Shown here: one piece after another, positions 3,144 to 5,464 of the stretch
Layout of the letters: the number at the start of each line of letters is the position of its first letter
Position numbering within the stretch: position 1 is the stretch's first letter
Sequence record: PQ657772.1
Source of the DNA: Escherichia phage EC.P1
Length of the DNA: 64,000 nucleotides
Reading direction: 5' to 3' (one strand)
The notes under the pieces: model-generated
Seen by the model: only the letters and a program-made list of their open reading frames with translations
Databases searched by the model: none
What the model was told of the DNA's origin: nothing
Translations under genes and position numbers: made by a program

Positions 3144-3177
3144 AAAAAGGAGAGCATTTGCTCTCCTTTTCTTTTTT
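3144..3177. terminator. bidirectional rho-independent terminator
   Basis: Stem GGAGAGC/GCTCTCC, A-run before and T-run after; between convergent genes. Confidence 0.7.
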
Positions 3178-5464
3178 ACGCAATAACTTTTTCTACTGCT
3201 TTAGTTCGTTTAGGTTTGATAGCCAATTTACCATCAATCACATCAAACGTTACGTTACCACCATTAACCAGAGAACCACACAACATCTCTTTAGCTAGTG
3301 GGACACGGATGTTTTGCTCAATAGTGCGTTTCATTGGACGTGCACCCATCCCAACTTTAACACCATTTGTTGCCAACCACTCACGTGCCGCTTTGGTTAG
3401 TGAAACTTTAACTTTGCGGTCTTTGATTTGTTCATTCAAACTTCCCATGAACTTATCAATGATGCTGTCAATCGCTTCGCTGCTTAGGTCTTTGAATGTC
3501 ACAATACTATCGATACGGTTGATGAATTCAGGTGGCAAGAATGCTTTAATCGCTTTATCTTGTGCTGTATCACTACCGCTCATCCCAATACTACGCTTGG
3601 TTGAATCTGCTGCACCAAGGTTAGTTGTCATAATAACAGTTACGTTATTGAAGTAAACAGTTTTACCTTGTGAACCAGTCAAACGTCCTTCGTCCAGAAC
3701 CTGTAGGAAGGTTAGTAGTACTTTACGATCAGCTTTTTCGATTTCATCAAGCAACAGTACTGCATTCGGGAACTGCTCAATCTTGTCGAGTAGCAGACCG
3801 TTACCGGAATCGTGACCAACATAGCCTGGAGGTGAACCAATCAGTTTAGCAACAGTATGTTCCTGTGAAAACTCGGACATATCGAAACGAATCAGTTCAG
3901 AGCCAGTTGCATCAGCCAGTGCTTTGGTAATTTCAGTTTTACCAGTACCAGATGGCCCAACAAACATGAATGCACCTTGAACACTTGATTTATCACGCAG
4001 ACCAGCACGAGCTACCATCACGTTATCAACCAGTTTCTGTACTGCTTCTTCTTGACCGTATACACGAGAACGTAGTGCATCTGGTAGATTACGCATACGT
4101 TCACTTTCAGTGCAAGCAACCACGTTAATATCTAGGTTTGCGATACCTGCAACAACTTCTTGAATCAGTGCAACAGTGATGATGTTATCATCAGTTTCAC
4201 GAGAACGTACTTTCGCTGCCGCCGCATCCATTAGGTCGATTGCTTTGTCGGGGAAGTGTTTGTTCTTCAGGAACTTATCACTTAGTGTAATAACTGCATC
4301 CATTGCTTCAGTACTGAACTCTACGTTATGGAAAGTTTCATAAGTAGATTTCAAACCATTCACAATCGCACGGGTTTCATCAATTGTTGGCTCAACTACA
4401 TCAATTTTCATGAAACGGCGAGTTAGTGCACTATCTTTTTCGATGTTTTTACGATATTCATCGTAAGTTGTTGCACCGATTACACGAATCTCACCACGAG
4501 ATAGTGCAGGTTTGAGCATGTTGCTCATATCCATAGAACCGTTGCTTGCTGACCCAGCACCAACCATAATATGGATTTCATCGATGAACACAATAGTGTT
4601 TTCACGTTTCTTCAGTTCTTTTAGTAGGTTATCGATACGTTCTTCGAACTCACCACGGTACTTAGTACCAGCAGTCAGTGCACCTACGTTCAGAGACAGA
4701 ATTTCAACATCTTTAAGATGCTCTGGTACTTCACCATCAGCGATTGCCTGTGCTAGACCATCAATGATTTGAGTTTTACCAACACCAGCTTCACCAGTCA
4801 GGATGGCATTCTTCTTAGTCTTACGGGCCAGAGTTTCAATCAGTGCAGAAAGCTCTTTCTGGCGACCAATCATTGGGTCAAGTTTACCTTCTTTTGCAAG
4901 TGCGGTTAGGTTAGTGGTGTAATCTTCTAAACCTTTTTGTTTGGACGATGGTTGCTGTTGTGCCACTTTTTTCTCCCCAGTTGGCTCATCACTAATGCTT
5001 TGAAGGTTGATTCCGTTGTCGATTGCTTCTACGTGCTTCTGTAGAGTTCGTGCTGCTTCAGTACAAGTGATACCCTCTTCACGCAATGCTGCTTCTAGTG
5101 CAGTATTTGGGAAGGACAAACACTCAAACAGTACAAAATAAGCATCAATTGAGAAATCATCACGTTTAAGTTGCTCAATTACTGATTTCTTAGAAAGTTC
5201 CTGAACTACACGGTTCACGAGAAGTGATGTGCGGTTCGCTTCATCACCATCAGCACTTTTAGGTGCATGTGGGAATGTTGTATTCTTCAGATATGCAATC
5301 AAACGACCGTGTAGGTTGTCTGCATCGATGTTCATATCTTCAAATACTGCTTTGATGCTATCGATTGTCAGTACTGTAGCACTTAGATGGTCAATAGTCA
5401 AGAATGTATGACCCAGAGAAGTTGCCAGTTCGTCGCTTTTTTTGAATAATTGGGTAAGATTCAT
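3176..5464 (-). CDS. clpA: ATP-dependent Clp protease ATP-binding subunit ClpA orthologue (N-domain plus two AAA+ modules)
   Basis: Two Walker A motifs (GEAGVGKT and GPSGTGKT), Walker B (VFIDEIH, LLLDEIEKA), no ClpB-type middle domain; long collinear similarity to E. coli ClpA (e.g. EDYTTNLTALAKEGKLDPMIGRQKEL vs ENFTTNLNQLARVGGIDPLIGREKEL). IGM tripeptide where ClpA has the ClpP-docking IGL loop. Start moved from GTG (5488) to ATG at 5464, which has an AGGAGA RBS. Confidence 0.85.
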   Translation of the reverse strand: MNLTQLFKKSDELATSLGHTFLTIDHLSATVLTIDSIKAVFEDMNIDADNLHGRLIAYLKNTTFPHAPKSADGDEANRTSLLVNRVVQELSKKSVIEQLKRDDFSIDAYFVLFECLSFPNTALEAALREEGITCTEAARTLQKHVEAIDNGINLQSISDEPTGEKKVAQQQPSSKQKGLEDYTTNLTALAKEGKLDPMIGRQKELSALIETLARKTKKNAILTGEAGVGKTQIIDGLAQAIADGEVPEHLKDVEILSLNVGALTAGTKYRGEFEERIDNLLKELKKRENTIVFIDEIHIMVGAGSASNGSMDMSNMLKPALSRGEIRVIGATTYDEYRKNIEKDSALTRRFMKIDVVEPTIDETRAIVNGLKSTYETFHNVEFSTEAMDAVITLSDKFLKNKHFPDKAIDLMDAAAAKVRSRETDDNIITVALIQEVVAGIANLDINVVACTESERMRNLPDALRSRVYGQEEAVQKLVDNVMVARAGLRDKSSVQGAFMFVGPSGTGKTEITKALADATGSELIRFDMSEFSQEHTVAKLIGSPPGYVGHDSGNGLLLDKIEQFPNAVLLLDEIEKADRKVLLTFLQVLDEGRLTGSQGKTVYFNNVTVIMTTNLGAADSTKRSIGMSGSDTAQDKAIKAFLPPEFINRIDSIVTFKDLSSEAIDSIIDKFMGSLNEQIKDRKVKVSLTKAAREWLATNGVKVGMGARPMKRTIEQNIRVPLAKEMLCGSLVNGGNVTFDVIDGKLAIKPKRTKAVEKVIA

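Follow-up and report, generated by a model that had tools for sequence, protein, structure and literature searches.

A ClpA-type unfoldase gene of Escherichia phage EC.P1 and its putative phage-encoded ClpP and ClpS-like partners

A stretch of 64,000 nucleotides from Escherichia phage EC.P1 (sequence record PQ657772.1; the whole stretch is referred to below as the window) carries on its minus strand a gene, clpA, whose product is a real, intact ClpA-type double-ring AAA+ unfoldase. We suggest that this protein probably serves as the ATP-driven unfoldase in a ClpAP-type protease that the phage encodes, with a ClpS-like adaptor and with expression from early promoters. To judge from the sequences, clpA is not to be read alone, as together with a ClpP and a ClpS-fold adaptor encoded elsewhere in the genome it has the look of a full viral ATP-dependent protease. 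On its own the gene is ordinary: its family is known, it is already annotated, and phage ClpA has been annotated for more than 10 years. The contribution of the present analysis is the three-gene picture, with its altered interfaces.

The window region shares 99.9% identity with Escherichia phage fEgEco12 (PP777464.1, 374.7 kb) and 84% with phages 121Q and PBECO4, all of which are Rak2-like jumbo myoviruses. Genes outside the window were read from the complete fEgEco12 record, which was searched by tblastn with the ClpP, ClpS and ClpA proteins of E. coli. ClpA has been described as highly conserved among most Rak2-like phages (PMC6102473), and ClpA and ClpX have been listed among the AAA+ chaperones of jumbo phages as possible translocases or assembly aids, with phage ClpP and phage ClpS noted separately (PMC7824862). 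The genome paper on fEgEco12 makes no mention of Clp, protease or promoter, and a literature search found no functional study of a phage-encoded ClpA.

The unfoldase

The open reading frame (ORF) of clpA covers 3176-5464 if counted from an ATG, and 3176-5488 if counted from an in-frame GTG further upstream. The ATG at 5464 is the credible start; the GTG is improbable because it lies directly 3' of the -10 element of the promoter and has no ribosome binding site (RBS). The GenBank record of fEgEco12 begins the coding sequence (CDS) at the same ATG, and the product is 100% identical to this CDS (XBS49409.1). The NCBIfam model for ClpA, TIGR02639, matches residues 3-741 over profile positions 5-733 of 734 (E 8.3e-226), whereas the NCBIfam models for ClpB, ClpV, ClpK and ClpG align merely as two separate stretches. 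Pfam recognises AAA, AAA_lid_9, AAA_2 (E 3.3e-49) and ClpB_D2-small (E 1.3e-21). E. coli ClpA, which is 43% identical by tblastn, gives one collinear alignment (PDB 1ksf; residues 17-741 against 20-734, E 5.6e-178).

The domain order given in a preliminary description of this DNA (N-domain, D1 and D2, with no ClpB middle domain) is borne out by TIGR02639, by the alignment with 1ksf and by an AlphaFold2 (AF2) model. Residues 325-445 are collinear with E. coli ClpA without any insertion, and the model has no long coiled coil. It was built with 47 homologues (mean predicted local distance difference test score, pLDDT, 79.4) and consists of an eight-helix N-domain, a disordered linker at residues 157-175 and two AAA+ modules. 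In Foldseek it matches the E. coli ClpA chains of ClpAP cryo-EM complexes with template modelling (TM) scores of 0.88-0.89 and a root mean square deviation (rmsd) of 3.2-4.1 A (D1-D2). The alternative of a disaggregase of the ClpB/Hsp104 type was ruled out by the absence of the middle domain and the presence of a docking-type loop. ClpC/ClpE was ruled out likewise, as the PDB chains of ClpC, like those of ClpB, split into two pieces where their middle domain falls, and ClpC scores below ClpA. The curated equivalog cut-offs are not reached (751.6 bits against 993.15 for TIGR02639, and 648.7 against 1350 for PRK11034), and the phage protein is therefore a diverged member of the ClpA family and not a curated equivalog.

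Identity to E. coli ClpA is 20% in the N-domain, 51% in D1 and 45% in D2. The sequence signal of the N-domain is weak but specific: Pfam Clp_N matches residues 11-59 with 21.6 bits (cut-off 20.7), the N-terminal region searched alone has ClpA N-domains as its top PDB matches (E 0.014), and the eight helices of the AF2 model fall into two groups of four. Inside the phage clade the N-domain diverges about twice as fast, and still keeps a clade-specific motif, FVLFECLSFPNT (pattern F.L.ECLSF..T), at residues 110-121.

D1 contains the Walker A motif GEAGVGKT (residues 224-231), the pore loop KYRGEFE, the Walker B motif IVFIDEIH and the arginine fingers RRF; the corresponding elements of D2 are GPSGTGKT, GYVGH and LLLDEIEKA, together with NR(I)D and the sensor-2 motif GARPM. 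In an alignment of 112 sequences from the phage clade the ATPase motifs are invariant or nearly so in D1 and invariant in D2. The pore-1 tyrosine is present in D2 of all 112, and the equivalent position in D1 is Tyr in 103 and Phe in 9. A loss of catalytic or pore residues was looked for by alignment with E. coli ClpA and the 112 clade sequences, and none was found.

The same description had noticed an IGM tripeptide at the position of the ClpP-docking IGL loop. It does align with I617-G618-L619 of E. coli ClpA, the loop that inserts into the hydrophobic pocket of ClpP (the pocket is described in bioRxiv 10.1101/820209), and it lies inside a flexible loop that is modelled with low confidence (residues 624-629). 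The third residue, Met, departs from the canonical [ILMV]-G-[FL], and the location in the D2 loop matches.

A phage-encoded ClpP

In the 64-kb window, tblastn with E. coli ClpP finds no ClpP gene, in agreement with the preliminary description. The notion of a phage without ClpP, and hence of retargeted host ClpP, did not survive the search of the remaining genome for clpP and clpS that was recommended there: fEgEco12 holds both a ClpP (g207) and a ClpS-fold protein (g414), and both co-occur with ClpA throughout the Rak2-like clade. This notion was an artefact, because 64 kb alone had been seen, and docking of the phage ClpA on host ClpP is no longer the economical reading.

Across the whole fEgEco12 genome, tblastn with E. 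coli ClpP matches g207 with 36% identity (E 2e-34). Pfam CLP_protease (PF00574) covers it from profile position 2 to 179 of 182 (E 1.3e-41, 143 bits), and the catalytic triad S97/H122/D171 is invariant in all 65 of the clade members compared. The score of 153 bits against TIGR00493 lies below the NCBIfam cut-off for a ClpP equivalog (308.6). RefSeq and PHROGs (phrog_94) name the protein a "head maturation protease". This label is probably wrong, because a T4 gp21-type prohead protease (g348) exists separately and adjoins the capsid gene; g207 lies in a non-structural block, and its fit to cellular ClpP models (about 153 bits, TIGR00493) far exceeds that to Clp_rel_HeadMat (51 bits).

The surface of g207 that would receive the ClpA loop differs from that of the host. 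Among 12 hydrophobic pocket positions defined in E. coli ClpP (bioRxiv 10.1101/820209), 9 stay hydrophobic in the phage protein, and the g207 family has Y60T, F82N/S and L114G, consistently across the clade. In addition, R192 is lost and the C-terminus is extended by a conserved tail, about 25 residues long, that ends in W-V/I. The gene has its own promoter (TAGACA-N16-TG-TATAAT, 11/12 with TG) and its own terminator.

Further candidates for a ClpA partner in fEgEco12 were rejected. The product of g214 (84170-84778), which is also named "head maturation protease", gives a borderline match to CLP_protease (20.6 bits), has a hydrophobic N-terminus and is ClpP/S49-like, while g216 (85128-85721) and g518 (305560-306057) belong to the HslV family according to PHROGs. 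No HslU-like partner for g216 or g518 was noticed in the fEgEco12 annotation. Several components for proteolysis thus seem to be encoded by the phage.

A ClpS-fold protein

A direct tblastn search of the whole fEgEco12 genome with E. coli ClpS returned nothing. The ClpS-fold protein g414 was traced through its label in the record, "protease adapter protein", and weak PDB and NCBIfam matches, and then through a profile of its family and a search by fold. The top ten PDB matches of the family profile are all ClpS (best E 4.3e-5, residues 69-139 against ClpS 19-89), and Pfam ClpS matches 18 of the 20 family members. The AF2 model (pLDDT 85.7) agrees with ClpS structures at TM scores of 0.82-0.91 and an rmsd of 1.1-2.2 A in Foldseek. 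It also has an additional N-terminal region of about 65 aa, which is predicted to be a folded beta/alpha domain with three strands and helices, and not a flexible extension.

In E. coli ClpS, residues N34, D35, D36 and H66 are what we take to be the N-degron pocket. D35 is kept in g414, and the others are replaced (N34 by D, D36 by P and H66 by an invariant N). In the same numbering, E79 is kept, and E82 and K84 are changed. The gene lies directly 3' of g413, which encodes an IF3-like protein, and the g413-g414 pair stands behind a sigma-70 promoter with 12/12 matches.

Co-occurrence of the three genes

In a collection of 50,697 phage records, ClpA was found at 60% identity or more in 70 and ClpP (g207) at the same threshold in 69, and the ClpS-like protein g414, counted at any match, in 71, all of them from Rak2-like phages. 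The ~70 records are the same for all three genes, and the counts by genus are near-identical among the genera listed: Escherichia 32-33, Klebsiella 10-11, Salmonella 8, Erwinia 8, Yersinia 4, Pectobacterium 2 and Cronobacter 2. For the ClpS-like protein, Xanthomonas (2) and Serratia (2) are listed as well, and single phages of these two genera are among the ClpA and ClpP matches. In metagenomic data, the longest contigs that match ClpA and those that match ClpP are equal in size (e.g., 357873, 370971, 349780, 350922 and 257964).

Given this co-occurrence and the promoters in front of them, clpA, clpP and the clpS-like gene look like one functional set under the control of the host polymerase. 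The joint presence of a phage ClpP and a ClpS-like protein with ClpA, each behind a near-consensus promoter, therefore makes phage ClpP the likeliest partner of the unfoldase, and not (or not only) host ClpP.

Transcription of clpA

The promoter proposed in the preliminary description, TTGACA-N16-TGaTATAAT, stands with 12/12 matches to the sigma-70 consensus and an extended -10 element. Such perfect sites number 31 in the genome, every one of them on the strand of clpA and none on the other, compared with 0-1 in shuffled genomes. The same strand also carries blocks of small early-type genes. Within the region of ~62-251 kb the clpA promoter is one of three perfect sites, so clpA is an early-type unit set antisense inside a late tail and baseplate block. 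The promoter is kept at the same position in phages RaK2 (12/12 with TG) and CBB (10/12 with TG), and a hairpin terminator 3' of clpA is also found in RaK2, CBB and Vibrio phage 2.275.O, where the gene likewise lies antisense in the tail module; this arrangement is old. Bounded by a sigma-70 consensus promoter of host type and by a terminator of its own, clpA stands as a monocistronic unit. It had previously been placed opposite a late fibre block; it is indeed antisense to adjoining late structural genes, and these encode tail and baseplate proteins and not strictly a fibre block.

As for the wider distribution of these sites, the 31 perfect sigma-70 sequences of fEgEco12 cluster at ~3-20 kb and 270-325 kb, amid runs of very small ORFs. 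A different element was observed on the plus strand of the window at 5533-5573, 5' of the ATG at 5574: the sequence GGTAAATAAAGATATA precedes the divergent gene g326, which encodes a virion structural protein in relatives. An ATAAATA late-promoter motif has been reported for CBB and GAP32, and GGTAAATAAAGATATA resembles it, so that the two genes seem to be separated by a short region with an early promoter on one strand and one of late type on the opposite strand.

Table 1. Coordinates of clpA, its parts and signals in the window, and of the putative partner genes in fEgEco12
Feature	Coordinates	Strand	Basis
Bidirectional intrinsic terminator, clpA / convergent giant structural gene	3144..3171	.	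11-12 pair hairpin, T-runs on both strands
clpA-like CDS (fEgEco12 g327), 762 aa from ATG	3176..5464	-	ORF list, TIGR02639, PDB 1ksf
D2 AAA+ module and D2-small domain, residues 446-745	3230..4129	-	Pfam, motifs, Foldseek
IGM tripeptide, residues 626-628, at position of ClpP-docking IGL loop	3581..3589	-	Alignment with E. coli I617-G618-L619
D1 AAA+ module, residues 179-445	4130..4930	-	Motifs; no middle-domain insertion
Flexible linker, residues 151-178	4931..5014	-	AF2 pLDDT <50 at 157-175; 9-11% identity to E. coli
N-domain, residues 1-150, diverged Clp_N double repeat	5015..5464	-	Pfam, PDB search, AF2
RBS AGGAG, 5 nt 5' of ATG	5470..5474	-	Direct sequence reading
Sigma-70 promoter with extended -10	5503..5530	-	TTGACA (5530-5525), N16, TGaTATAAT (5511-5503); 12/12 match
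ClpP homologue g207, 231 aa, ~87 kb from clpA	PP777464.1 80543-81238 (outside the window)		tblastn, Pfam
ClpS-fold protein g414, 181 aa	PP777464.1 251795-252340 (outside the window)		Family profile, Pfam, AF2

A putative phage ClpAP-type protease

In the scheme that we favour, host RNA polymerase would transcribe clpA, clpP and the clpS-like gene early in infection. ClpA hexamers would unfold their substrates by means of the KYR and GYVG pore loops and pass them into a tetradecamer of phage ClpP, with the IGM loop docking in a ClpP pocket unlike that of the host. The ClpS-like protein, with its extra N-terminal domain, might bind the diverged N-domain of ClpA and select or redirect substrates. 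As substrates one may think of host or defence proteins, of phage proteins made early, or of host protein in bulk, broken down so that its amino acids can be recycled.

Several points weigh against such a protease. The pairing of phage ClpA with phage ClpP is deduced from sequence, and early expression from promoter sequence alone. The three genes are spread over ~170 kb and form no operon. The docking tripeptide drifts across the clade while the ATPase core is frozen: its first position is I in 47, M in 33 and L in 23 sequences, its second G in 93, S in 9 and N in 8, and its third M in 59, V in 12 and L in 10, with A, G and F besides. The resulting forms are IGM, LGL, IGV, MGM, MSM, MNM, IGG, IGA and VGF, and since IGG, IGA, MSM and MNM fall outside the bacterial [ILMV]-G-[FL] rule, some lineages may dock to ClpP weakly or no longer at all. 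Co-variation between the ClpA loop and the ClpP pocket showed no clear pattern in ten pairs (nine from phages and that of E. coli), which are too few to conclude from.

The contact surfaces that have diverged (the tripeptide, the ClpP pocket, the ClpA N-domain and the pocket of the ClpS-like protein) fit a phage-specific pairing and do not prove it. More tentatively, and with rather less than even confidence, we consider that ClpA, ClpP and the ClpS-like protein might form a self-contained, early protease whose contact surfaces have drifted from those of the host, so that it is insulated from host ClpAPS and degrades host or defence proteins of the phage's choosing. If true, such an insulated machine with its own substrate rules would be a tractable case in which regulated proteolysis is brought in by the virus itself, and a possible route to the host or defence proteins that jumbo phages must remove.

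Alternative roles

The phage ClpA might instead work exclusively or mainly with host ClpP, perhaps with phage ClpP used as well, binding the host protein through the IGM loop and retargeting host proteolysis. The change from IGL to IGM is conservative, and the tripeptide keeps its position and lies in a flexible loop; the D2 module that bears it is close to that of E. coli, in sequence (45% identity) as well as in fold (TM 0.88-0.89 to ClpA from ClpAP complexes). As 9 of the 12 pocket positions remain hydrophobic in phage ClpP, cross-docking with host ClpP is plausible too. A phage ClpP with an invariant triad is co-inherited with ClpA, however, which is hard to explain if host ClpP is the working partner, and in related phages the tripeptide drifts to IGG, IGA and MSM although their enterobacterial hosts have canonical ClpP. 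We regard this role as unlikely, if worth keeping in mind.

It is quite unlikely, in our estimation, that the protein is a ClpP-independent unfoldase or chaperone for virion assembly, acting for example on the structural protein of ~3300 aa or on tail and baseplate parts, a role of the kind suggested for jumbo phages (PMC7824862). The position of clpA inside the tail/baseplate module speaks for it, as fEgEco12, RaK2, CBB and the Vibrio phage (47% identity) all share it. In fEgEco12, RaK2 and CBB the gene lies between a virion protein, a tail-sheath stabiliser and a NUDIX gene on one side and a giant structural gene on the other; the Vibrio phage has a beta-helix repeat protein in place of the giant structural gene. 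The relaxed docking tripeptide would also be in keeping with a chaperone, and E. coli ClpA alone has chaperone activity, for example on RepA. Nevertheless, clpA runs antisense to the structural genes, with a host sigma-70 promoter in place of the late-type motif, and ClpP and the ClpS-like adaptor are co-conserved with it. Moreover, the virion proteome of CBB includes both flanking proteins, CBB_234 (12 peptides) and CBB_236 (21 peptides), but ClpA (CBB_235) was not among the proteins detected (PMC5259590).

That clpA is a recently captured host gene without a specific role, or a decaying gene, has its bacterial ancestry and nothing further in its favour, and can be dismissed as extremely improbable because the conservation data contradict it: the protein is only 43% identical to E. 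coli ClpA, its homologues form a deep, phage-only clade (54-100% identity) to which the nearest bacterial sequences are 39-45% identical, the catalytic motifs are invariant in the 112 sequences, and synteny and promoter are conserved. By these identities the phage ClpA is an old viral lineage and not a recent capture.

Neighbouring genes and other observations

The plus strand of the window at 83-3142 encodes the C-terminal part (1019 aa) of a giant virion protein, ~3300 aa in length (g328, 9972 nt), the gene of which extends upstream of the window. This gene and clpA converge on the bidirectional terminator that they have in common. Homologues of g328 flank clpA in RaK2 and CBB, and mass spectrometry has confirmed CBB_236 in virions. 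A NUDIX hydrolase gene is found at 8422-8886 (plus strand) in the tail module, beside the tail-sheath stabiliser, an arrangement kept in RaK2, CBB and the Vibrio phage. The fEgEco12 record has a terminal repeat of ~20 kb, in which g01-g049 equal g615-g663. On its minus strand, at ~330-349 kb, there are about 14 tandem paralogues of ~370 aa each, annotated mostly as "chromosome condensation regulator" or "DNA condensation protein" (RCC1-like). Phages 121Q and PBECO4 have been described as having similar multi-copy genes, and GAP32 as having a homologue that is associated with the virion (PMC5259590).

Comparison with known Clp systems

The closest counterparts are the ClpA orthologues of other Rak2-like phages (RaK2 ORF069, 121Q gp581, GAP32 and CBB_235), which are 61-93% identical and have the synteny, orientation, promoter type and terminator in common. 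They show no substantive difference from the protein described here except in the tripeptide, which is IGM here and LGL, IGV or MGM elsewhere in the clade.

With E. coli ClpA of the ClpAP/ClpS system (PDB 1ksf, 6w1z and 7uiv), the phage protein shares the order N-D1-D2 without a middle domain, the Walker, pore-loop, arginine-finger and sensor residues, and the place of the docking loop. It differs in its N-domain (20% identical), in the change of IGL to IGM, in the variability of this tripeptide within the clade, and in scoring below the equivalog cut-off. Compared with E. coli ClpAPS, the ClpP and ClpS-like partners in fEgEco12 are phage-encoded, scattered in the genome and diverged. With the ClpP-like prohead proteases of phages, g207 shares the label; it fits cellular ClpP far better and has a non-structural location.

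ClpA-like and ClpP genes are both present, as here, in Agrobacterium phage Atu_ph07, Pseudomonas phage PA5oct and Sinorhizobium phage Phosso; Atu_ph07 has been reported with ClpX, ClpA, ClpB, ClpP and ClpS (PMC6102473). The ClpP proteins of these three phages are nearer to cellular ones, with 46-64% identity to E. coli ClpP as against 36% for g207. Their ClpA proteins are 39-41% identical to the ClpA of EC.P1, which is about as distant as bacterial ClpA, so they may represent separate acquisitions.

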